In this document: positions 5,812-54,477 of the stretch, one piece after another
Numbering within the stretch: position 1 is the stretch's first letter
How the letters are laid out: the number at the start of each line of letters is the position of its first letter
NCBI GenBank assembly: GCA_029944565.1
Contig: GCA_029944565.1_4115.1
Direction: 5' to 3' (one strand)
Origin: a phage
Length of the DNA: 64,000 bases
Notes under the pieces: generated by a model
Seen by the model: only the letters and a program-made list of their open reading frames with translations
What the model was told of the DNA's origin: nothing
Databases searched by the model: none
Position numbers and translations under genes: made by a program

Positions 5812-6236
5812 GTTTTGTCTCTTAATGAAAGAATATCCTTAGTATAAACTGAAACAGAAATATGATTATATTTCATCATTAATTTATACACATAAGAAGC
5901 TAGTACTAAATCGTAAATTAATTTAGTATTATACAGTACTTGGTATTGTAACGCAAGTGAATCAATATCATCTTTACTTTCAATATCCAGAAATGTACCG
6001 AAAAATGTAGTACCGTAGAGATGAAAAGTGGAATTAATGCAATCAATGCATTCATTGTCCAATAGAGTAGATGCTGATGCCCTCGGTGAATCCCAAATAG
6101 TCACTGCGTGTATGCCCTCAACGAACAAATCTATCCATATTTTGTGTCGTTGTCTTTTTTTTGTTTTATAATTTTCTGGATTTGAAAGTGTAGTTTCAAT
6201 TATATCCCATATGTACAAACAATCATCTCTTGTCAT
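5808..6236 (-). CDS. hypothetical protein (divergent family A?)
   Basis: 142-aa ORF, coupled to neighbours. Confidence 0.5.
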   Translation of the reverse strand: MTRDDCLYIWDIIETTLSNPENYKTKKRQRHKIWIDLFVEGIHAVTIWDSPRASASTLLDNECIDCINSTFHLYGTTFFGTFLDIESKDDIDSLALQYQVLYNTKLIYDLVLASYVYKLMMKYNHISVSVYTKDILSLRDKT

Positions 6237-8036: not shown

Positions 8037-8602
8037 TATTTTGGTAAAACACTGTCAATGTACGCTAGAACCTCATCTCGAAGGTACGTTCCATCTATAG
8101 TTAGGTAATAGTTCATGGGAATATCACTCCCAACCTTCTCATAAATTTTCATACATGATATCACATCTTCATCACAAATGGTACTCAATTGAAAAAGAAC
8201 TTCATCGGTTAACGGTACGATATCATGTTTAGATAGGGGATTTGTATTTTCATTCAACACAATATTAATCAAGTTAGGAGTATTCTTTGACGAAATATAA
8301 CGATGCTTACTACGAATTACCATTCTCGATAGTGAAATACTGGAACTCCATCTTGGATCAACATCTTCATATGATAACGATATTAACATCTCGTGAAAAT
8401 CTTGAAATTTCATTGACGCATAATATGTTTTATCCTCACCGTACATACCAAATGATTTAAATTCAATATCCCCCACTTTGTATGTATCGACATCATTATT
8501 TGAGAACTTTATTAAACTATTAATTAGTCTAATTAGAATATCATCTTTATCCATTCTTAAATAACTCCAAGTGCATGTCGTATAAATCTCTGAAGTCTTC
8601 AT
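8036..8602 (-). CDS. hypothetical protein, family A paralog
   Basis: motif DEVLFQLSTIC; start may be internal Met (~8554). Confidence 0.6.
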   Translation of the reverse strand: MKTSEIYTTCTWSYLRMDKDDILIRLINSLIKFSNNDVDTYKVGDIEFKSFGMYGEDKTYYASMKFQDFHEMLISLSYEDVDPRWSSSISLSRMVIRSKHRYISSKNTPNLINIVLNENTNPLSKHDIVPLTDEVLFQLSTICDEDVISCMKIYEKVGSDIPMNYYLTIDGTYLRDEVLAYIDSVLPK

Positions 8603-16237: not shown

Positions 16238-16686
16238 TCTATACCTTCTGGATCTTTACGAAGTTCTTCGAAATCCAAATAAAATCGAGGACAGTTAACA
16301 CTCTTTAAGTACCACATAATAACTAATGCTTCAAGTACTTCATCATCGTAAACAGTACTGTTTTGGAAGTAATACTCTTCACTATCCCACGGACCTTCCA
16401 GTACTTCATAATTCAAAATTAATGGTTTTTTGCGATTAATAAAACGAATGCTACCATTTTCAACATAACTAATAAATTCTGCATCTCTATTGTATTCAGA
16501 AAACGATATAGGACTATTGGAATTCAACCCAAGAATAACCCTTACACCAACGGAGTTATTATACATTTCATCCTTGTAGTAGTTGCCGTTCTCGGCTTTG
16601 TACACTTCTTTGAACTTTCCTGCCTTTATATCGTCAAAGTATCCATGTAGTTCTTTTGCTTTTTCAAGAGCACTTTGTAATGACAT
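16234..16686 (-). CDS. hypothetical protein, family A paralog (MSLQSALE subgroup)
   Basis: motif EEYYFQNSTVY; N-term MSLQSALEKAK. Confidence 0.6.
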   Translation of the reverse strand: MSLQSALEKAKELHGYFDDIKAGKFKEVYKAENGNYYKDEMYNNSVGVRVILGLNSNSPISFSEYNRDAEFISYVENGSIRFINRKKPLILNYEVLEGPWDSEEYYFQNSTVYDDEVLEALVIMWYLKSVNCPRFYLDFEELRKDPEGIE

Positions 16687-17152
16687 TACCTTCTCCTACA
16701 GTATTCTCTACATATTCATAATCAAAATAGAAACTACTGGAGTCAATACTTTTGAAATACCACATAATTACAATAACATCTAATTCTTCTTCATTGTACA
16801 ACGTACTATTCTGGAAGTAATATTCTTCACTATCCCACGGTCCTTCCAGTACTGAATAAGGAATGATAGTGTCATCAGCATCACTATCTGTGTTGTAGAT
16901 GGTAATATCTTCATTACGGCAATAACTAATGTACTGATTGTACATATGATATTCACAGTTATCACTGTCACCAGTATCAGTGTGCAGTACTAATGTTTCT
17001 GCACATATCTCGGACTCGTCATAATCGTCACGGTCTTTTACAAAAAATTCAGTATCAGATGTTTTATATACACCTGGTACTGAACCTTCCTGTACCATAA
17101 TCATGTACTCATGAATCTTCTTTGCTTCTTTCAATGCACTTTGTAATGACAT
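16664..17152 (-). CDS. hypothetical protein, family A paralog (MSLQSALE subgroup)
   Basis: motif EEYYFQNSTLY. Confidence 0.6.
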   Translation of the reverse strand: MSLQSALKEAKKIHEYMIMVQEGSVPGVYKTSDTEFFVKDRDDYDESEICAETLVLHTDTGDSDNCEYHMYNQYISYCRNEDITIYNTDSDADDTIIPYSVLEGPWDSEEYYFQNSTLYNEEELDVIVIMWYFKSIDSSSFYFDYEYVENTVGEGNVITKCS

Positions 17153-17596
17153 TACAAATCCCCTGTACTTAAATATTCACATGCTCCCCAGTCAAGAAAG
17201 AATGGTTCAAAATTCAATTCCTTAAAGTACCACAACACAACCAAGGAATCAAGAATTTCTTGGTTAAAAATGAGACTCTGTTGGAAGTAATACTCTTCAG
17301 TACCCCACGGGCCATCAAGTACCCCGAAGTCAACAGGTGTATTTGTTGTGTCAAAAGTAATCTTAGTACCTGGAATATATACAAAAAAAATTAGTATATT
17401 GACTACATGAAGAGTACTGTATAGTATTGTCTTTATCCTGTCCCATAAGTAAAATATCATCAGAGTATGTCTTTATACCTGATAGATAATACTCATTACC
17501 AAATGCACTTACTTTATCACCATAGAAACCACTTTTTATGTTATCGTGGAAGTGATGTATTCTGTGTGCTAGTTCAAGTGCACTTGCTAAACTCAT
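17152..17596 (-). pseudogene. family A paralog split by frameshift
   Basis: N-terminal ORF 17363..17596 (MSLASALE...) and C-terminal ORF 17152..17460 (EEYYFQQSLIF) overlap out of frame at A8/T8 run 17383-17390. Confidence 0.5.
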
Positions 17597-18063
17597 ATAT
17601 CCTCTTTAATAACTCGTAGTAGATCCAAGTCCAAATAGAAGCTAGGACAATCTGTATTATTAAAGTACCACAGAATGACAAGCTTGTCAAGTACATCTTC
17701 CTCGTAGATAGTATTCTGCTGGAAGTAGTACTCTTCACTTCCCCAGTCATTATCCAGTACTGAATACGGAAGATGTTTCTCTGCTGCACCAGATATAATG
17801 TCAGAATCTTGTATTAAAATATCAGCATCACGACAGAAGTACATGTAATTATCTTCCAAATTAACATCACACCCATTGAGTGTTGTTTCAGAAGAATCTA
17901 AGTTTTCTTCATACATGTGAATGTACTCACTACTGTCATCGTATCTCATTCGACAATATGATTTACCTTCCTTGAATAGATATCCATTAAGACAATTTGC
18001 TACAATTTCTTTGCTGCATAAATCAATTAACTTCGCAATCTCTAATGCTCTTTCTAAACTCAT
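17593..18063 (-). CDS. hypothetical protein, family A paralog (MSLQSALE subgroup)
   Basis: motif EEYYFQQNTIY. Confidence 0.6.
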   Translation of the reverse strand: MSLERALEIAKLIDLCSKEIVANCLNGYLFKEGKSYCRMRYDDSSEYIHMYEENLDSSETTLNGCDVNLEDNYMYFCRDADILIQDSDIISGAAEKHLPYSVLDNDWGSEEYYFQQNTIYEEDVLDKLVILWYFNNTDCPSFYLDLDLLRVIKEDI

Positions 18064-18064
18064 T

Positions 18065-18556
18065 TCAACCCCTGTTAATACCGTTATCTACAGTTTTCTT
18101 TACGTATTTGTAATCGAAATAGAAGTTCCCAGAACCAATACTTTTAAAGTACCACATAATTATAATAACATCAAGTACTTCATTATCATATACAGTACTT
18201 TGTTGGAAGTAATACTCTTCACTATCCCACGGACCTTCCAGTACTTCACTCGGAATTATAATGTCATTGGAATCGCTGTCAGTACTGTTGATGGTATCTG
18301 TATCATTAATATAGACCATGTACTCATTATGCATATTAATGAAGCATTCATAATCATTAGGGTCGGTATCTAGTATGCACGTTTCTGTATCCAGTACGCA
18401 CGTTTCTGTATCTGAGCAGTCATTATAAAGGAGGTTATCCGGTACATAATATTGAGTACTTGTGTCTTTGAAAACACCGTAAACTGAACCTTCTTTTGCC
18501 ATATTCATGTACTCATGAATCTTCTTTGCTTTTTCCAATGAACTCTGTAATGTCAT
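18065..18556 (-). CDS. hypothetical protein, family A paralog (MSLQSALE subgroup)
   Basis: motif EEYYFQQSTVY. Confidence 0.6.
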   Translation of the reverse strand: MTLQSSLEKAKKIHEYMNMAKEGSVYGVFKDTSTQYYVPDNLLYNDCSDTETCVLDTETCILDTDPNDYECFINMHNEYMVYINDTDTINSTDSDSNDIIIPSEVLEGPWDSEEYYFQQSTVYDNEVLDVIIIMWYFKSIGSGNFYFDYKYVKKTVDNGINRG

Positions 18557-31439: not shown

Positions 31440-31726
31440 CGATCAGTACACCTTAGTGGTTGGGTCATTTGATAAAAGTACAGCTTACCTTTGATTTCCA
31501 GTAGTAACTCCGCGATTAAGCGATTTACTTCTGTATCTTGATAGTTTGTTCCTAAGAATACACCCATCTTTAACTCACGCATCATAATCATTTTCTTACT
31601 GTGTTGAATTTCTGGGTTGTGATAGATTGTATTACGTTTGTGCGTAATTTTTGTCATACGCTCGGTATATTCATCTTTACTTAAATTGATCATTTGCATG
31701 TTCATCAACCTCACATTTATTTTCAA
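31436..31726 (-). CDS. small hypothetical protein, family B paralog
   Basis: motif FLGTNYQDT. Confidence 0.5.
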   Translation of the reverse strand: MKINVRLMNMQMINLSKDEYTERMTKITHKRNTIYHNPEIQHSKKMIMMRELKMGVFLGTNYQDTEVNRLIAELLLEIKGKLYFYQMTQPLRCTDR

Positions 31727-31728
31727 TA

Positions 31729-31995
31729 CTATTCTTTAGTTTGTAGATATAGTTTTCTTCCAATGTATCTCTTAAGTGCGATTATGTATTCATCTACATA
31801 ATACTCCTGATAGTTTGTTCCTATGAATGCACCCACCTTTAACTCAAGTTTCATAATCATCTTATTTCCGTGTTTAATGACTTCTCCGTGATGGATTTCA
31901 TTAAGTCCAGGTGCAATTTTCACCAGGCGTTCTTTATATTTTGCTTGAGATAATTTAATCATTTTCATGTTAATTACCCTTACATTTATTTTCAA
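31729..31995 (-). CDS. small hypothetical protein, family B paralog
   Basis: motif FIGTNYQEY. Confidence 0.5.
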   Translation of the reverse strand: MKINVRVINMKMIKLSQAKYKERLVKIAPGLNEIHHGEVIKHGNKMIMKLELKVGAFIGTNYQEYYVDEYIIALKRYIGRKLYLQTKE

Positions 31996-32200
31996 TACTA
32001 TTCATGAGTTCTATAAGATAGTTTTCTACCTTACCTTCCTGATAGTTAGTCCCTAGGAAGTTGCACAACACGGCTTCTATGATTTTGATTTTCCTGATAT
32101 CAGGCTTCAATCTTTTGTTATTGAATATTTGAATCCTTATATCTCTGGATGCATTTAAACGTTTTTGATATTCATGGTAAGTTAAATGAATCATTTTCAT
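31970..32200 (-). CDS. small hypothetical protein, family B paralog
   Basis: motif FLGTNYQEG. Confidence 0.5.
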   Translation of the reverse strand: MKMIHLTYHEYQKRLNASRDIRIQIFNNKRLKPDIRKIKIIEAVLCNFLGTNYQEGKVENYLIELMNSIENKCKGN

Positions 32201-32415
32201 TTACGTTTAACCTCTCGCTGGAGGGCATCAATTAACATCAGTACAGCATTCTCTTGATAGTTTGTTCCTAAGACTGAAAGCATCTTTATCTCATTTACTA
32301 AAATCAACTTCTTTGAGGGTTCAATAATGTGACTATCATAAACGGCCTTACGTGCTGGATAAGTTTTCGCCAGTATAACATAAAATTCGTCTTTACTTAA
32401 ATTAATCATTTGCAT
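32197..32415 (-). CDS. small hypothetical protein, family B paralog
   Basis: motif VLGTNYQEN. Confidence 0.5.
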   Translation of the reverse strand: MQMINLSKDEFYVILAKTYPARKAVYDSHIIEPSKKLILVNEIKMLSVLGTNYQENAVLMLIDALQREVKRK

Positions 32416-32624
32416 TTACTTTTAACCTCTTTCTGTAGAGCGTCAATCCATAGATCTACATACATTTGTTGATAGTTTGTGCCTAAGAGTGCACCTACAT
32501 AGAGTTCAGTTACTAGTGCGTGCTTAAGGTTAGCTTGGATGCTCTTATCGCTTGATATCATTCTCCTTCTGCTTCCACATGTTTTCAGGAGTCTGATGTA
32601 TTCAAAGCCTTGTAAATTTCTCAT
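32406..32624 (-). CDS. small hypothetical protein, family B paralog
   Basis: motif LLGTNYQQM. Confidence 0.5.
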   Translation of the reverse strand: MRNLQGFEYIRLLKTCGSRRRMISSDKSIQANLKHALVTELYVGALLGTNYQQMYVDLWIDALQKEVKSKCK

Positions 32625-32836
32625 ATTTTGGATACTACCTTGTTACGTAAGGAACTTAATAATACGTCAGTGTAGATGTTTTGATAGTTTGTCCCTACGA
32701 ATACACCCAACTTCATTTCAGCTATTATAACACATTTGTCCTCTTGTGCAATAGATTTGTTTAACACAATACTATACACTTTTGATTTGATAGTTTGTAA
32801 CCTCCAATGATACTGATACTCATTAAGGATTATCAT
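32621..32836 (-). CDS. small hypothetical protein, family B paralog
   Basis: motif FVGTNYQNI. Confidence 0.5.
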   Translation of the reverse strand: MIILNEYQYHWRLQTIKSKVYSIVLNKSIAQEDKCVIIAEMKLGVFVGTNYQNIYTDVLLSSLRNKVVSKI

Positions 32837-33071
32837 TCTCTTTCCTCCAGATTTCGGTTCTCATGTGTTGGCAGTGTGCATCAATATATTGCTCTATCGA
32901 TCTGGCGATTGCTGTTTTATCAGTGCCTGTCATCAGTACAAGCATCTCGGCCTCACAGTGAAGTAAACGCATGATATCATAGGGTAATATTTCAGATACC
33001 GTGTCATAGTGTTTCTGTGCCAGTGTCTGCAATAGTTTACAATACATTTTGTGATTTAGTCTTTGTCGCAT
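32823..33071 (-). CDS. small hypothetical protein, family B-like
   Basis: variant MTGTDKTAI. Confidence 0.45.
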   Translation of the reverse strand: MRQRLNHKMYCKLLQTLAQKHYDTVSEILPYDIMRLLHCEAEMLVLMTGTDKTAIARSIEQYIDAHCQHMRTEIWRKENDNP

Positions 33072-33328
33072 TGTTTATTCCATTCTTTTTTGGCTCTCTG
33101 GGTTTTATATTGGATTTGGTTTCTTAATGATGCCAAGTATCGTTGAATGAACAGATCTTGATAGTTTGTTCCAATGAATTTCATAAGATAAACATCACCG
33201 TTGATAACATCCACTTCAGGTGCACCATGTAATACATTGTTTTTTCTAAGGGTGTTAATAAGAGAGAAGAGGGCAGTTTGATACTCAACTCCTGATAAAG
33301 TCTTCATGTTTTGCGAGCCAATATTCAT
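33056..33328 (-). CDS. small hypothetical protein, family B paralog
   Basis: motif FIGTNYQDL. Confidence 0.5.
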   Translation of the reverse strand: MNIGSQNMKTLSGVEYQTALFSLINTLRKNNVLHGAPEVDVINGDVYLMKFIGTNYQDLFIQRYLASLRNQIQYKTQRAKKEWNKQCDKD

Positions 33329-33548
33329 CTAGTTTATCCTGTATAACATTCATTAATTGATCGACAAATTCTTTGCAAAACTTATCTTGATATTGAGTCC
33401 CCATAAAGTACAGCAACCATAGCTCATTAACTTTAGCTCGCATTTGGTTCCATGTAAGGGTGGGGTCATCGTAGATTACTCTTGCTTCTGGGGTGAGCTT
33501 TCGAATTCTAAGTGAATATTCATCTTGTGTTAAGTATTTCATTTGCAT
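33285..33548 (-). CDS. small hypothetical protein, family B paralog
   Basis: motif FMGTQYQDK. Confidence 0.5.
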   Translation of the reverse strand: MQMKYLTQDEYSLRIRKLTPEARVIYDDPTLTWNQMRAKVNELWLLYFMGTQYQDKFCKEFVDQLMNVIQDKLDEYWLAKHEDFIRS

Positions 33549-33697
33549 TTGTCCATAATGTAATTCTTGAGTGCAACTATGTGTTCATGGATATAAAAAT
33601 TCTGATGAGAAGTTCCAAGAAAGTACAGCATCCATCCCTCACTCTGCTCGACTTCTAGTTTAGTATCGAGTTGGTCAGATATGTTAATGAAAACCAT
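33539..33697 (-). CDS. short family B member (52 aa), possibly truncated
   Basis: motif FLGTSHQNF; below ORF-track cutoff; start shares duplicated 45-bp block with neighbour. Confidence 0.4.
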   Translation of the reverse strand: MVFINISDQLDTKLEVEQSEGWMLYFLGTSHQNFYIHEHIVALKNYIMDKCK

Positions 33698-33954
33698 TAG
33701 TTCTTTTCCTTTCTTTCTATTTGTTTCATAAGAACATTGATATACTCACCCGCAAACCTATTCTGATACTGCGTCCCCATGAATTCCAACATCCATACTT
33801 CAGCAACCTTTTCTTCAATTTCAGTCCATTGTAAGTACATCATAGTGAAGTAAATGGTGTTCTCTTTTTTTCTGGCACTCTTAGCACGGGCCTCGTATTC
33901 AAAGTTATTAATGATGTTCATTACATTTGTCCATAATGTAATTCTTGAGTGCAA
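33697..33954 (-). CDS. small hypothetical protein, family B paralog
   Basis: motif FMGTQYQNR. Confidence 0.5.
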   Translation of the reverse strand: MHSRITLWTNVMNIINNFEYEARAKSARKKENTIYFTMMYLQWTEIEEKVAEVWMLEFMGTQYQNRFAGEYINVLMKQIERKEKN

Positions 33955-34135
33955 CTATGTGTGCAATAACATACTCTTCCTGGAAGTTCGTCCCCAGTAC
34001 AGCCATCATGCGTTTATCGGTGGTGTTTATCCTGTGTTCCCTTACACATAAACCTTCTTTGTGAGGAAGTGTAAAATATTTGTTTATTGCAGCTATGATA
34101 ATTTTATTCTTCTCTATATTACTTAAATGTTTCAT
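33908..34135 (-). CDS. small hypothetical protein, family B paralog
   Basis: motif VLGTNFQEE. Confidence 0.5.
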   Translation of the reverse strand: MKHLSNIEKNKIIIAAINKYFTLPHKEGLCVREHRINTTDKRMMAVLGTNFQEEYVIAHIVALKNYIMDKCNEHH

Positions 34136-34344
34136 AGTTTACTCTTAATGTAGTTCTGAAGTTCAATTAAGTATTTCCCTACATAATACTCCTGAAAGTC
34201 TGTATCCAAAAATGCACCCATAAGTAAATCCTTCTCCATTGCCCTTGATAAGTTAAGGTCTGCATTTGAAAGGTATATAAGTAATATTTCAGTCTGGACA
34301 GAATTAAAACGTTTCTTATATTCTTCAGGTGTTAATATAATCAT
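34132..34344 (-). CDS. small hypothetical protein, family B paralog
   Basis: motif FLDTDFQEY. Confidence 0.5.
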   Translation of the reverse strand: MIILTPEEYKKRFNSVQTEILLIYLSNADLNLSRAMEKDLLMGAFLDTDFQEYYVGKYLIELQNYIKSKL

Positions 34345-34556
34345 AATTTGCTCCTGATGTATTTCTCAAGAGATGACAAATACTTTTCCTCATAATACTC
34401 CTGATAGTCTGTTCCCAAGAATGCACCCAAAAGTATTTCATTTTCCAATACCTCGGCTAAGTTTAAATCAGACGTCTCTTCGTATATTATGAGGATTTCA
34501 AGTTGTCTGGCAGCGATGCGTTCAGTATATTGATATGAGTTTTCTATAATAATCAT
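34341..34556 (-). CDS. small hypothetical protein, family B paralog
   Basis: motif FLGTDYQEY. Confidence 0.5.
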   Translation of the reverse strand: MIIIENSYQYTERIAARQLEILIIYEETSDLNLAEVLENEILLGAFLGTDYQEYYEEKYLSSLEKYIRSKL

Positions 34557-34762
34557 ATTTTACTCTTAATATCTTCTATTAAAAATCGAATCCATTCTTC
34601 AACATAATCTTCCTGATGGTTTGTGTTCAGTACAGCCAACATGCGGATCTCTGCTCTTGCAACTTCAATTTCAGTTTTAGGCAGGTCTTTGCTGATATCC
34701 ACCATTAAGTCCATGTATTTCAAGATAAGACCGTATGATTGGGTTCGTGTTATAGTTTTCAT
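34553..34762 (-). CDS. small hypothetical protein, family B paralog
   Basis: motif VLNTNHQED. Confidence 0.5.
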   Translation of the reverse strand: MKTITRTQSYGLILKYMDLMVDISKDLPKTEIEVARAEIRMLAVLNTNHQEDYVEEWIRFLIEDIKSKI

Positions 34763-34959
34763 TGTTTCCTCGTGGACAATATTTTATTTTTCAATGTATC
34801 CATATATTGCCACACCCATCTACCCTGATAGTTTGTTCCCAATGTAATCAAAAGGTATAACTCCATTCGTTCTACGTGTGTGTCTGTGTTGTAAATCTTT
34901 ACGTAGTTTTTACGTAACAGTGATTGATATTCTTCTTTATTTAAAATACGCATTTTCAT
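34759..34959 (-). CDS. small hypothetical protein, family B paralog
   Basis: motif TLGTNYQGR. Confidence 0.5.
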   Translation of the reverse strand: MKMRILNKEEYQSLLRKNYVKIYNTDTHVERMELYLLITLGTNYQGRWVWQYMDTLKNKILSTRKQ

Positions 34960-35153
34960 AGTTTACTCGTTATATCTTCAATTAAATACCAAATCCAATC
35001 GTTGACATACCTTTCCTGAAAGTTAGTTCCAATGAATAGTGCCATAATTAATTCACGCTTATAGGCAATACCACGGTCATGGGACTTATACATTATCATA
35101 GCCATGTTATTGATAAGTCTTTCGTGGTGCTGTTCTTTAGTTAAAATACGCAT
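34956..35153 (-). CDS. small hypothetical protein, family B paralog (first gene of array)
   Basis: motif FIGTNFQER; start at MRILTKEQ with SD aagggag, track ORF extends 10 codons further. Confidence 0.5.
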   Translation of the reverse strand: MRILTKEQHHERLINNMAMIMYKSHDRGIAYKRELIMALFIGTNFQERYVNDWIWYLIEDITSKL

Positions 35154-36652: not shown

Positions 36653-36732
36653 TTAGATACACCTATGCACCCTGTGGGCTAGTTTTTGTCTATGCGTATA
36701 TAGTACTAAAGGAGCGGACCGAAGTCAACTCC
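36653..36732 (-). promoter_or_regulatory. conserved intergenic element, copy 1 (promoter TTGACT-17-TACTAT inside UUCG hairpin, then conserved core)
   Basis: core ...tgcaccctgtgggct... at 36653-36681; hairpin ggagcggac-cgaa-gtcaactcc at 36711-36732. Confidence 0.5.
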
Positions 36733-39402: not shown

Positions 39403-39487
39403 ATAGATACATTTATGCACCCTGTGGGTCAGTGAGCTATCTCTCAATGAATATATAATAGCAAAGGGACTGACCGAAGTCAATCCC
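39403..39487 (-). promoter_or_regulatory. conserved intergenic element, copy 2 (promoter TTGACT-17-TATTAT inside UUCG hairpin, then conserved core)
   Basis: core at 39403-39432; hairpin gggactgac-cgaa-gtcaatccc at 39465-39487. Confidence 0.5.
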
Positions 39488-42675: not shown

Positions 42676-42755
42676 ATAGATACATTTATGCACCCTGTGG
42701 GCTGATTTGTTTCTATGCGTATATAATAGCAAAGGGACTGACCGGAGTCAATCCC
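42676..42755 (-). promoter_or_regulatory. conserved intergenic element, copy 3 (promoter TTGACT-17-TATTAT inside hairpin, then core)
   Basis: core at 42676-42704; hairpin gggactgac-cgga-gtcaatccc. Confidence 0.5.
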
Positions 42756-44530: not shown

Positions 44531-44788
44531 TTATCTCATAGATCTATGCCAACAATTACGCGGGGGACGTTTAAAAGTACTATCATGATCCTCCTGGCAA
44601 GTTATGCAGTACTTACATCCCTTAACGGCCTGGCGTCGATTCTCAGGGATTATATCGCCGCAGTCGAGGCAATGTATCAGTGATTCTATTTGTGCGTTAA
44701 TTTGCTTTCTAGCGTGGTTAACGGCGGCCTGAATCACTGCGTTAATCTCGTCTTGTTCGGCCCCATCTTTCGCGAATCCTACAGCCAT
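44531..44788 (-). CDS. TraR/DksA-family C4 zinc-finger protein (putative)
   Basis: CLDCG-N17-CKYCITC spacing (CxxC-N17-CxxC). Confidence 0.5.
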   Translation of the reverse strand: MAVGFAKDGAEQDEINAVIQAAVNHARKQINAQIESLIHCLDCGDIIPENRRQAVKGCKYCITCQEDHDSTFKRPPRNCWHRSMR

Positions 44789-45039
44789 TATTTTAACCTC
44801 ATTATAAAAATACTATAGTACTGTAATGCGACAATAATATTACTTGTTCTTACTTTTTCCAATCCACATGATACCACATATTCATCCCCATATGTGCGAA
44901 ACGATACACCATGAAAATTTTTATACACTTGCACTACTAATCATAACCTTTCGTCTAACCAACTGCATAGAATTATACTACTTTACGCAAATTGATCAAG
45001 TATTGATCAGATCATTTTTTGATCAATATTATACAGTTA

Positions 45040-45115
45040 CATTTGTGCACCCTATGGGTTAGTGACGTTCTCGTCTTGATGTAAGTATTATGCCAGTACT
45101 TGATGATATTGTCAA
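45040..45115 (-). promoter_or_regulatory. orphan promoter (TTGACA-17-CATAAT) with conserved transcribed core, no ORF downstream
   Basis: hexamers at 45087-45115; transcript begins acttacatcaagacgagaacgtcactaacccatagggtgc. Confidence 0.5.
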
Positions 45116-45119
45116 TAGT

Positions 45120-45317
45120 TTATTTTAATTTTTTTCTGTCATTGATTAATGCTTTCAGTACTATACTAATGATTTGCAATGATTCATCAATGACTATAAA
45201 ATTATTCTCTTTCATTAGATGATAGTTACCATTGATTGTATATTCTAAGGAGTACTGTTTACGTTTAATTTTTGATAATGTTTCTATTTGTTTTTGTACT
45301 GATTTCATGCTAATCAT
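45120..45317 (-). CDS. hypothetical protein
   Basis: 65-aa ORF. Confidence 0.5.
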   Translation of the reverse strand: MISMKSVQKQIETLSKIKRKQYSLEYTINGNYHLMKENNFIVIDESLQIISIVLKALINDRKKLK

Positions 45318-46709: not shown

Positions 46710-46792
46710 TAGATACACTCCTGCACCCTGTGGGCTAGTGAGCTATCTCTCAATGATTATATAATAACAAAATGGCTGACCGAAGTCAACCA
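46710..46792 (-). promoter_or_regulatory. conserved intergenic element, copy 4 (promoter TTGACT-17-TATTAT inside UUCG hairpin, then core)
   Basis: core at 46710-46755; hairpin tggctgac-cgaa-gtcaacca. Confidence 0.5.
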
Positions 46793-49686: not shown

Positions 49687-50169
49687 TTATGCTTCAACTT
49701 TGCGATGAGCTTCGATCCATTCCTCGCGAGTCATACCGCTTTCTTTGATAGCGTCCAGTACTACCGCAATGCAGTTACCGCGTACAGGAATCATATGTTC
49801 TTCCCCGTTATCAAGTACTACAGTAACACGTTCTTGAATCCATTTTTTAGGTTTAGATTCTGGCTTATCTTCACCATACTTAACCGCCAGGGCTTTATGT
49901 GCCATTTCTACAACTACTTCCAGATCCAATCCAGCCACCGCCGCCTGGATACTTTCGATTGTTGCTTGCAGTTCGGCTTCACGGGCTTTTTTCTGTTCTT
50001 CCAGTTCTGCTACCTTTTTGGCTTGCAGTTCTTTAGCTTCACTGTACGCAATGTTAAAATTGTTGCGTACTGCTTTCATGGTATCGTTATCCAGGTCAGC
50101 CAACAATTCAGCAGCAATAACAGTATCGTTTGAAATCAGTGCTTTCAGGAATGATTTTACATTAGCCAT
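49687..50169 (-). CDS. hypothetical protein with central coiled-coil-like segment
   Basis: start MANVKSFLKAL with SD gagga; Ala/Glu/Lys-rich heptad-like middle. Confidence 0.6.
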   Translation of the reverse strand: MANVKSFLKALISNDTVIAAELLADLDNDTMKAVRNNFNIAYSEAKELQAKKVAELEEQKKAREAELQATIESIQAAVAGLDLEVVVEMAHKALAVKYGEDKPESKPKKWIQERVTVVLDNGEEHMIPVRGNCIAVVLDAIKESGMTREEWIEAHRKVEA

Positions 50170-50292
50170 TTTATAAATCCTCAATTAAAGTTTAGTTTAC
50201 GTTTATTAGTGTATCAAAGTTTTATCGACGTGTCCAGTTTTTCGTTCGACTTACTGGCGGTCTACTTAGTGCTCCCCGTCTTGATGTAATAC

Positions 50293-50320
50293 ATTCTACG
50301 CCTTTTTGTGGTAATGTCAA
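50293..50320 (-). promoter_or_regulatory. promoter (TTGACA-16-TAGAAT) with ~110-nt leader
   Basis: leader starts ...catcaagacgg... like other conserved-core transcripts. Confidence 0.5.
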
Positions 50321-51114: not shown

Positions 51115-51147
51115 GTATTTTAATAAAAAGTATTTGAAAAATAATTG

Positions 51148-51176
51148 TTGACAACTGCATCCAGTACTGGCATAAT
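51148..51176 (+). promoter_or_regulatory. plus-strand promoter (TTGACA-17-CATAAT)
   Basis: hexamers read on plus strand; drives conserved-core transcript. Confidence 0.55.
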
Positions 51177-51182
51177 TACTAC

Positions 51183-51275
51183 ATCAAGACGAAACAGTCA
51201 CTAACCCACCGGGTGCCGAGATCCGTCTATTAAATGATTCAGTACTTAACAATAAAGGGGATCAATCGATCCCCT
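51183..51275 (+). ncRNA. candidate small RNA carrying the conserved promoter-proximal core
   Basis: no ORF; GAC-gaaaca-GTC hairpin then ACTAACCCACCGGGTGC; ends at hairpin ggggatc-aatc-gatcccc. Confidence 0.35.
51248..51275 (-). terminator. candidate rho-independent terminator
   Basis: same hairpin read on minus strand is followed by UUUAUUGUU after stop of 51281..51502. Confidence 0.45.
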
Positions 51276-51280
51276 ATGTA

Positions 51281-51502
51281 TTACTTAGTAAGGTATAAAC
51301 AGAAGTCACCTTTATTTGCTACGCCGCCAGTGTAACGCGATGAATAGTTAGAAACGTCCTGGACTTCTGCTATTACCAGTGTATCATCATTCAATTCGTC
51401 GCAGAAGCAAACGGCTGGATCTTTTACGCCGATCTTGTCGGCATGTTCCCGCATAGATTTAACCAGTGCTTCCAGTTGAGAAAGAGTAGTGATATTAGCC
51501 AT
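51281..51502 (-). CDS. hypothetical protein
   Basis: start MANITTLSQ; track ORF extended through leader. Confidence 0.55.
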   Translation of the reverse strand: MANITTLSQLEALVKSMREHADKIGVKDPAVCFCDELNDDTLVIAEVQDVSNYSSRYTGGVANKGDFCLYLTK

Positions 51503-54164: not shown

Positions 54165-54351
54165 TACTATATAGACGCGAGAAAGCGGATACCCCAGGGG
54201 GTGGGAAGATCCGTCCAAAATTCAAGATATAAAAAAAGGATAGACTCCCGCACCCTAGCAGGTTAACGCACTTTCTCAGTACTGAATTATAGTACCATAG
54301 TCCGGCCCAGGATGGCAAGCAAATTAATTAAAACTTTTTTCATCCAGGGTA

Positions 54352-54380
54352 TTGCTTTATTTTTCCAGTACTGCTATAAT
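54352..54380 (+). promoter_or_regulatory. plus-strand promoter (TTGCTT-17-TATAAT)
   Basis: followed by GTC-gagaaa-GAC hairpin and CCCACCGGGTGCATAGTTGTATCTA core. Confidence 0.5.
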
Positions 54381-54477
54381 ATTTTTATCAAGTCGAGAAA
54401 GACTCTAGCCCACCGGGTGCATAGTTGTATCTAAAATTCAGTACTAGATTATTTTTTAAAATTATTCATCCAAGCGG

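Follow-up and report, generated by a model that had tools for sequence, protein, structure and literature searches.

The locus analysed here lies between positions 44531 and 45317 of a 64,000-nucleotide (nt) stretch of phage DNA (NCBI GenBank assembly GCA_029944565.1, contig GCA_029944565.1_4115.1), referred to below as the window. In this part of the window the minus strand encodes the genes; read in that direction, the locus comprises a gene for a protein of 65 amino acids (aa), a sigma-70-type promoter match (P1), a leader bearing a small hairpin and a conserved core, an open reading frame (ORF) of 48 codons that we call ORF48, and a DksA/TraR-type zinc-finger gene (Table 1). The 951 nt around it are 100% identical to Escherichia phage vB_EcoM_CRJP21 and share 89-99.9% identity with about 35 further Asteriusvirus jumbo phages (PBECO4, 121Q, SP27, UB and others); judged from these matches, the window is from an Asteriusvirus jumbo phage of E. 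coli. In the relative vB_Ec-M-J the locus falls within the annotated direct terminal repeat. An earlier note, made from the sequence alone, had described an orphan promoter with a conserved core and no downstream ORF, heading either a non-coding RNA (ncRNA) of ~0.3 kb or a long structured leader of the DksA-like gene. Comparison with related phages points instead to a small accessory early-gene cassette, and we consider it likely that this is what the region represents, located inside what is a direct terminal repeat in the annotation of a relative. The new part is the conserved leader element; the rest has the make-up of an ordinary, dispensable early-gene cassette.

Table 1. Features of the locus and copies of the core in the window
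Feature	Position	Strand	Remarks
Upstream 65-aa gene	45317..45120	minus	ends in left repeat copy
Left copy of direct repeat TTAAAATAA	45120..45128	minus	last codons and stop of 65-aa gene
332-nt indel segment	44788..45119	minus	P1, leader, ORF48, right repeat copy
P1	45087..45115	minus	TTGACA, 17 nt, (TG)G CATAAT; 11/12 consensus matches, TG before -10
P1 predicted transcription start	about 45082-45080	minus	inferred from spacing only
Initial transcribed consensus TACATCAAG	45075..45083	minus	shared with the genome's canonical early promoter cassettes
Hairpin 1	45064..45075	minus	GACG-AGAA-CGTC; in the place of the larger GGGGAGAA/TTCTCCCC hairpin of canonical cassettes
Core CTAACCCATAGGGTGCA	45046..45062	minus	can form 4-bp RCCC/GGGU hairpin
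P2	45028..45035	minus	extended -10-like TGTATAAT, no -35; 13 nt downstream of core; weak candidate by inspection
GATC / TGATCA(A) array	44992..45026		4 GATC in 35 nt, two TTGATCAA palindromes; overlaps P3 -35
P3	44972..44999	minus	predicted; TTGATC-16-TATAAT, 10/12 consensus matches
Shine-Dalgarno-like AAAGG of ORF48	44947..44951	minus	12 nt before GTG; invariant in both allele types inside divergent stretch
ORF48	44788..44934	minus	48 codons, MQVYKNFHGVSFRTYGDEYVVSCGLEKVRTSNIIVALQYYSIFIMRLK; GTG start, TTG in 121Q type
GAGG Shine-Dalgarno of DksA-like gene	44800..44797	minus	inside last codons of ORF48
Right copy of direct repeat TTAAAATAA	44788..44796	minus	from junction alignment with phAPEC6
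DksA/TraR-type C4 zinc-finger gene (85 aa)	44531..44788	minus	PF01258 and PHROG 54
Core copies in window	36666, 39416, 42689, 45046, 46722	minus	
Core copies in window	51201, 54405	plus	

The stretch between P1 and the DksA-like gene was said to hold only a 19-codon ORF, and this proved wrong, as the conserved ORF48 had been overlooked; its GTG or TTG start explains why a reader seeking ATG-initiated frames saw no gene. Of 16 phages, 15 keep the frame open, and its 147 nt carry no indel, whereas the 75 nt upstream show two small indels and 56% identity between the two allele types, named after PBECO4 and 121Q, which within the gene are 66% identical over codons 1-35. The ratio of nonsynonymous to synonymous substitution rates (dN/dS, NG86) lies at 0.11-0.33 for frame 0. 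For the other two frames nearly every comparison gives a value >1 or, where synonymous differences are zero, an undefined one; the exceptions are 0.40 and 0.93. Counts of variable sites at codon positions 1/2/3 are 11/9/26 (p=0.0036); for the 121Q type taken alone they are 2/4/13 (p=0.0044). The start codon keeps its position, with GTG used by the PBECO4 type and TTG by the 121Q type, and PHROG 38664 (hypothetical protein) matches ORF48 at positions 1-48 of 48 (E=7.4e-36). By these comparative measures ORF48 is a protein-coding gene under purifying selection. It is annotated in 121Q (gp293), PBECO4 (gp253, 100% identical), CMSTMSU, WPEC5, JNE01 and Turkey3, is missing from the annotation of CRJP21 (the record identical to the window), UB, slurp01, SP27 and BF17, and appears merely as a 29-codon fragment in SHEFM2K and JP4. 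Two other frames were considered and rejected: the ATG ORF at 44912..44850 (20 codons) loses its ATG and acquires stops in the 121Q-type allele, and the reverse-strand ORF of 72-74 aa that the SHEFM2K and JP4 records annotate is broken in the same allele type.

Homologues of ORF48 exist in more distant jumbo phages. Erwinia phage Hallingskeid encodes a 60-aa homologue with an ATG start (BLASTP E=1e-9), and Pectobacterium phage CBB an unannotated 48-aa homologue, MRVLKSHNDIIFATYGDCYMVKKGRMKIVCNNPVIALYYYCKLLSENIK (L052:443-589; NC_041878 16897-17043), which is ATGA-coupled to the next gene, gp043, and whose start codon sits in a 10-bp inverted repeat, ACTCGCATAG...CTATGCGAGT. An IMG/VR search for further ORF48 loci returned 121Q alone. 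As to the nature of the protein, an AP2-like fold was considered and is unsupported, Pfam giving nothing; the idea that ORF48 is a paralogue of the upstream 65-aa gene was dropped for lack of similarity, and a likeness to the neighbouring 59-aa protein is confined to a YVVSYG stretch.

The stop codon of ORF48 overlaps the ATG of the DksA-like gene (TAATG), from which it would follow that the two are translated as a coupled pair. The zinc-finger gene had been recognised as TraR/DksA-like beforehand, and its protein indeed matches PF01258 at 42.7 bits (gathering cut-off 24.9, E=5.4e-11) as well as PHROG 54. The pair as such is not a conserved unit, since the genes that follow the Hallingskeid and CBB homologues are not DksA-like.

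These results bear directly on the proposal that P1 drives a ~0.3-kb ncRNA, or else a long structured leader, by which the DksA-like gene is regulated. P1 does appear to be real, an ATG-initiated ORF of any length is lacking, and about 150 nt separate P1 from the GTG of ORF48. Of the ~280 nt taken to be non-coding, however, only these ~150 nt truly are, the 3' half being ORF48; purifying selection at the protein level acts on 147 of the ~290 nt, to judge from the dN/dS values and codon-position counts given above. Because the 3' half is protein-coding, the reading as a 0.3-kb ncRNA is rejected. Nor does the leader look like a long structure. Fold z-scores are -1.48 (159 nt), -0.11 (304 nt) and -0.82 (121Q allele), which amounts to no stability signal against shuffled controls; the predicted folds of the two allele types are unlike, with just two mini-hairpins common to both, and the middle of the leader is 56% identical between them with small indels. 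A search of Rfam 15 gave no match at E<=1 in the 44.8-45.1 kb region and none reaching the gathering score in the whole window, a tRNA/tmRNA scan of the window found no gene, and there is no terminator-like site between P1 and ORF48. Thus what the earlier note called a long structured leader shrinks to a short, partly structured 5' element, and the leader opens first into ORF48 rather than directly into the DksA-like gene. Altogether we regard a regulatory ncRNA or long leader as very improbable. P1 with its hairpin and core is ~95% conserved between the allele types against 56% for the adjoining sequence; only the first ~45 transcribed nt form a conserved, partly structured leader element.

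The cassette shows a clear presence/absence pattern. According to the alignments, a 332-nt segment is present in phages of the PBECO4 and 121Q types and exactly absent from a third group of Asteriusvirus genomes (phAPEC6, G17 and UE-S1), where the 65-aa gene runs straight into the DksA-like gene, the two overlapping by one base. The segment is bordered by a 9-10-bp direct repeat, (G)TTAAAATAA, or by GTTAAAATAA in 121Q; at the junction G17 retains the right-hand version (AGGTTAAAATAA) and phAPEC6 the left-hand one. Since homologues of ORF48 occur in distant genera and two deeply diverged alleles exist, presence of the cassette is presumably ancestral, and its absence would have arisen by deletion between the short repeats. 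From its clean loss in these phages, the cassette as a whole is dispensable.

The promoter at the head of this cassette is the element of the earlier description that fared best. The TTGACA-17-CATAAT match is there with 11 of 12 consensus positions, and across 16 related phages neither the hexamers nor the 17-nt spacing change, whereas the sequence of the spacer does (it differs in Turkey3, Turkey5 and EcMJ), a pattern expected of selection on a promoter. The label of orphan does not hold, since P1 heads a cassette with a 48-codon gene. It is a copy of the genome's repeated promoter family (family D3) and fits the sigma-70-type early cassette of this phage group, with -35 TTGACA/TTGCAA, -10 TATAAT and 16-18 nt spacing. 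The conserved core noted after the promoter was likewise found, in two parts, one of them TACATCAAG (45083..45075), which occurs in ~20 promoter cassettes of the window, and the other CTAACCCATAGGGTGCA (45062..45046). P1 departs from the canonical cassette in two respects: the stem-loop that follows TACATCAAG is the 4-bp GACG/CGTC helix, where canonical cassettes usually have 7-8 bp, and a gene with Shine-Dalgarno (SD) and ATG is lacking from the ~50 nt after the start site. At the point where SD-ATG-gene stands in canonical cassettes, an ATG at 45042 is directly followed by TAA (45042-45037, minus strand), and the SD-like AGGGTG before it forms part of the core hairpin; this could be a start-stop element, or else a scar left by a lost gene. 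The equivalent ATG of Hallingskeid opens a 20-codon ORF that is not conserved. A further family promoter at 50168-50320 of the window (minus strand; TTGACA-17-TAGAAT, TACATCAAGACGGGGAG...) has a leader of ~115 nt before an ATG at 50168, with neither the canonical hairpin nor the core.

It could therefore be asked whether P1 and the core are a leftover, that is, a stand-alone unit or a gene-deleted cassette fused upstream of ORF48, with P3 truly expressing ORF48 and P1 adding nothing specific. The ATG-TAA at 45042..45037 would fit such a scar, the P3 -10 and the AAAGG are conserved within the divergent block, and the cassette can be lost altogether. The ~95% conservation of the P1 hexamers, hairpin and core is at odds with this, as is the Hallingskeid homologue, which shows the same order of promoter, core, GATC pairs and gene; together they argue for a retained arrangement, and we consider the leftover explanation improbable.

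The hairpin and core belong to a multi-copy module. The core pattern CTRRCCCAYMGGGTGCA occurs 7 times in the window against 0.55 expected, a count reached in 0 of 100 shuffles, and IMG/VR scans found the core in RaK2, GAP32, CBB, 121Q and other jumbo-phage genomes of 350-380 kb. Once chance matches in unrelated contigs had been discarded, ~60 copies were kept, all of them in fixed orientation 20-31 nt after the -10 of a TTGAC[AT]-17-TAtAaT promoter (28 nt at P1). A 12-nt stretch, CCCAnnGGGTGC, is invariant in all collected copies, partly by construction because the copies were gathered by means of that core; neither the hairpin nor the fixed distance to the promoter was part of the pattern searched for. 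Hairpin 1 has changes on both sides in 4 of 4 pairs and a family-wide covariation score of 0.257, compared with 0.131 +/- 0.012 in shuffles (0/500) and 0.03-0.12 in slid controls, as computed on an unbiased MAFFT alignment in which paralogues and orthologues are mixed and with statistics that carry no phylogeny correction. The hairpin folds in 27 of the 28 unique long-class leaders, in 23 different sequences and with a mean z of -2.2 over the 28; its weakest form in the family is the copy at P1 (GACG-AGAA-CGTC). Consensus folding of 53 core-bearing leaders returned the invariant 4-bp RCCC/GGGU hairpin alone.

The surroundings of the copies differ. About 10 have a G+C hairpin and T-run within ~60 nt (e.g. 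L026 -9812, L030 +4501, L049 -10020) and would make stand-alone units of ~100 nt. Core units form eight convergent overlapping pairs, the remaining copies lead into a gene or the next promoter, and in some the terminator hairpin of the gene before encloses the promoter -35. In the window, the minus-strand copies at 36666-36682, 39416-39432, 42689-42705 and 46722-46738 come after a terminator hairpin, GGGATTGACTTCGGTCAGTCCC, plus TTT; the hairpins hold a TTGACT -35, with TATTAT 17 nt on, and the next canonical promoter follows each, so that by their layout these four copies are composite terminator/promoter units. The two plus-strand units of the P1 type at ~51137-51290 and ~54340-54440 (TTGACA-17-CATAAT, hairpin, core) oppose the surrounding genes and are candidate antisense or small RNAs; the hairpin at which the former ends, GGGGATCAATCGATCCCC, doubles as the 5' leader hairpin of a promoter cassette on the minus strand. 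In related jumbo phages convergent core pairs enclose a palindrome, AATGATAATCATT (L030 ~8050-8136, L033 ~1248-1334, L049 ~6060-6139, L030 -2871), which by our own comparison is similar to the core of the E. coli Fur box (14/19 to GATAATGATAATCATTATC); in the window none was seen.

What could such a module do? One possibility is that hairpin and core are a cis-acting RNA signal on early transcripts, conferring nut/put-like terminator resistance or acting as a stabiliser or processing site. At those loci of relatives where the unit has its own terminator it would yield a small RNA (sRNA) of ~100 nt, and P1 would attach the signal to the ORF48/DksA-like transcript. The fixed orientation and distance of the ~60 copies, the covariation of hairpin 1, the ~10 copies with a nearby G+C hairpin and T-run, and an early region dense in terminators with embedded promoters all agree with such a role, as does the analogy with lambda nutL. 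Still, the core sequence is invariant without compensatory changes and so fits a DNA site equally well, and stand-alone units at convergent gene ends have nothing downstream to antiterminate. We hold this explanation to be possible but rather unlikely as it stands.

It could also be that the core is a DNA box for a phage regulator, comparable to the T4 MotA box, which would switch on a later promoter 11-13 bp downstream, here P2 (TGTATAAT at 45035..45028), giving a tandem of early and middle promoters. In T4 the spacing from MotA box to -10 is 11-13 bp, and by our own inspection a TAnnnT-like hexamer lies 11-13 nt after GGGTGC in most copies of the core; the invariance of the core, with its CCC-N3-GGG inverted-repeat frame, is what one would expect of a protein site. 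On the other hand, TAnnnT is frequent by chance in AT-rich DNA, the TG of P2 is lost in most 121Q-type phages, and the middle-type motif given for CBB and GAP32 in passages of the CBB report (PMC5259590), TGAAACG, is a different one. A switch of this kind is quite improbable in our view.

Downstream of the leader element, P3 is likely the proximal promoter of ORF48, as its -10 (GTATAATTCT) is invariant inside a block that is 56% identical between the allele types. Over its -35 lies the densest GATC cluster of the 64-kb window, with GATC pairs 11 nt apart. GATC is under-represented in the window (150 against 201-239 expected), and by our own Poisson estimate ~0.01 clusters as dense as this would be expected by chance; 3 of the 17 TGATCA copies of the window are in the array. 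The two allele types have three GATC positions in common, and GATCAA is present five times in the 121Q type (four times in Turkey5). Hallingskeid has two 11-nt-spaced GATC pairs upstream of its ORF48 homologue, and in CBB no GATC pairs were found upstream of the homologue. The array is probably a Dam/SeqA-sensitive site or an operator for a sequence-specific protein. The promoters of IS10 pIN and Mu mom are Dam/SeqA-sensitive and, like the array, have GATC in or next to promoter elements, several of them one helical turn apart; unlike them, the array is built of a longer repeat unit, TGATCA(A), which fits a sequence-specific operator equally well.

From these observations one may picture the working of the cassette as follows. 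Host sigma-70 RNA polymerase would start at P1 (45115..45087), a member of the repeated early-promoter family, and the first ~45 nt of the transcript would contain the 5'-proximal hairpin and the core CCCAnnGGGTGC, a module common to many Rak2-like early promoters. Hairpin and core may act on the nascent transcript or the elongating polymerase, through stability, processing or factor loading. As no terminator follows P1, the transcript would run on through P3 (44999..44972), whose -35 lies within the TGATCA(A) array and thus probably within an operator or Dam/SeqA-sensitive site, and would enter ORF48, with its weak GTG/TTG start, and then the coupled DksA-like gene.

Several observations weigh against this account of the cassette. 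Consensus matches of the promoter type are common in AT-rich DNA (24 found against 15.2 +/- 4.3 in shuffles), and P1, P2 and P3 are such matches, that is, predicted promoters. The core is without covariation, its hairpin showing just A-U/G-U alternation, and a closing helix between the 5' end and a GUAUCUAU-like segment 3' of the core, which we had considered, was rejected since cognate pairings (-5.43 kcal/mol) scarcely differ from non-cognate ones (-5.23 kcal/mol; permutation p=0.21). The spacing of 12 nt between SD and start of ORF48 is longer than the 8-9 nt of neighbouring genes, and together with the non-ATG start this could make translation inefficient. In TH47, whose record is flagged UNVERIFIED, codon 39 is a stop. 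The ORF48 protein has no Pfam match, only one of five AlphaFold single-sequence models is confident (pLDDT 83.6, four strands and a C-terminal helix; the other four are at ~50), and a comparison of the model with the PDB gave no significant match (best E=0.46).

Among known systems, the closest are the promoter-early stem-loop (PeSL) cassettes of T4-type phages (Arbiol et al. 2010, PMC2839356; Comeau et al. 2014, PMC4122927). Both are repeated units with a strong sigma-70-like early promoter, AT-rich upstream sequence, a G/C-rich stem-loop and SD-ATG, both stand among small ORFan genes of a hyperplastic early region, and in both cases single small genes are gained or lost between close relatives; the composite terminator/promoter copies described above resemble PeSLs in particular. 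The cassettes here differ in that the stem-loop is downstream of the -10, in the transcript leader, that a subset of copies carries the extra invariant core (CCCAnnGGGTGC), and that the 9-10-bp repeat TTAAAATAA, found where the 65-aa gene and ORF48 have their 3' ends, forms the indel junction in place of two flanking promoter cassettes. A second parallel is with the Rak2-like phage CBB, for which passages of the genome report describe RpoD-like promoters (TTGACA / TATAAT) with UP-like elements, concentrated at short hypothetical genes that its authors read as early, and reaching into the terminal repeat (PMC5259590), as do those here; these passages mention neither a transcribed core nor promoter-proximal hairpins. 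In function, lambda nutL and the PR'-tR' 6S unit may offer an analogy, as they too have a short conserved element and a small hairpin early in the transcript, and as in PR'-tR' 6S a promoter with a near terminator would give an RNA of ~100 nt in some copies. The lambda nutL site is at about +33 of the pL transcript. To our knowledge, hairpin and core have no likeness to boxA/boxB, put or QBE, and we know of no antiterminator.

Some other features of the window and its relatives were recorded along the way. The early region contains many terminators with embedded promoters. The Chi sequence GCTGGTGG is present 9 times on the coding (minus) strand (36613, 36837, 38414, 40315, 42663, 43931, 45394, 49550, 54915; 0.2 expected) and twice on the plus strand (49612, 54927; 0.15 expected), all sites of the window being inside 36-55 kb. 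Several are in intergenic terminator/promoter modules; the terminator hairpin that directly precedes the 65-aa gene, for one, holds a site. The Chi sites could shield the terminal-repeat region from RecBCD. AGTACT is found 259 times against 21.5 expected and CAGTACTG 54 times against 0.6 expected; the former forms part of numerous promoter spacers and intergenic modules. Diverged repeats arranged in tandem at a period of ~440-480 nt (families D5, D9, D17), along with repeated blocks of 50-90 nt (D8, D16, D20), occupy 16267-18251 and 31536-35065 and look like families of paralogous small genes. Finally, the TH47 record (L004, MT446416) matches the 951-nt query in two pieces over ~1374 nt, which implies a ~420-bp insertion somewhere in the flanks.

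As for the wider meaning, the comparative evidence settles the annotation of a 48-aa gene family that reaches the jumbo phages of Erwinia and Pectobacterium, and whose member here is already annotated in several relatives but missed or shortened in many records. The conserved GATC/TGATCA array over the proximal promoter gives a regulatory hypothesis, namely Dam/SeqA sensitivity or a sequence-specific repressor. A literature search for the core sequence brought up irrelevant papers alone, the element is not in Rfam, and an Rfam search of the RaK2-type loci with stand-alone units gave nothing relevant. Tentatively, and aware that the odds are against so broad a claim, we suggest that the hairpin with its CCCAnnGGGTGC core may mark an undescribed class of phage RNA element across the Rak2-like jumbo phages (Asteriusvirus, RaK2, GAP32, CBB, Hallingskeid). 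It might be the 5' domain of stand-alone sRNAs of ~100 nt, often in convergent overlapping pairs, or a cis signal on early transcripts for elongation, termination or decay, combined at the present locus with a TGATCA operator array controlling a small conserved protein. With its many copies, the element would in any case provide a handle on early transcription among the dozens of promoter/terminator units of Rak2-like phages.

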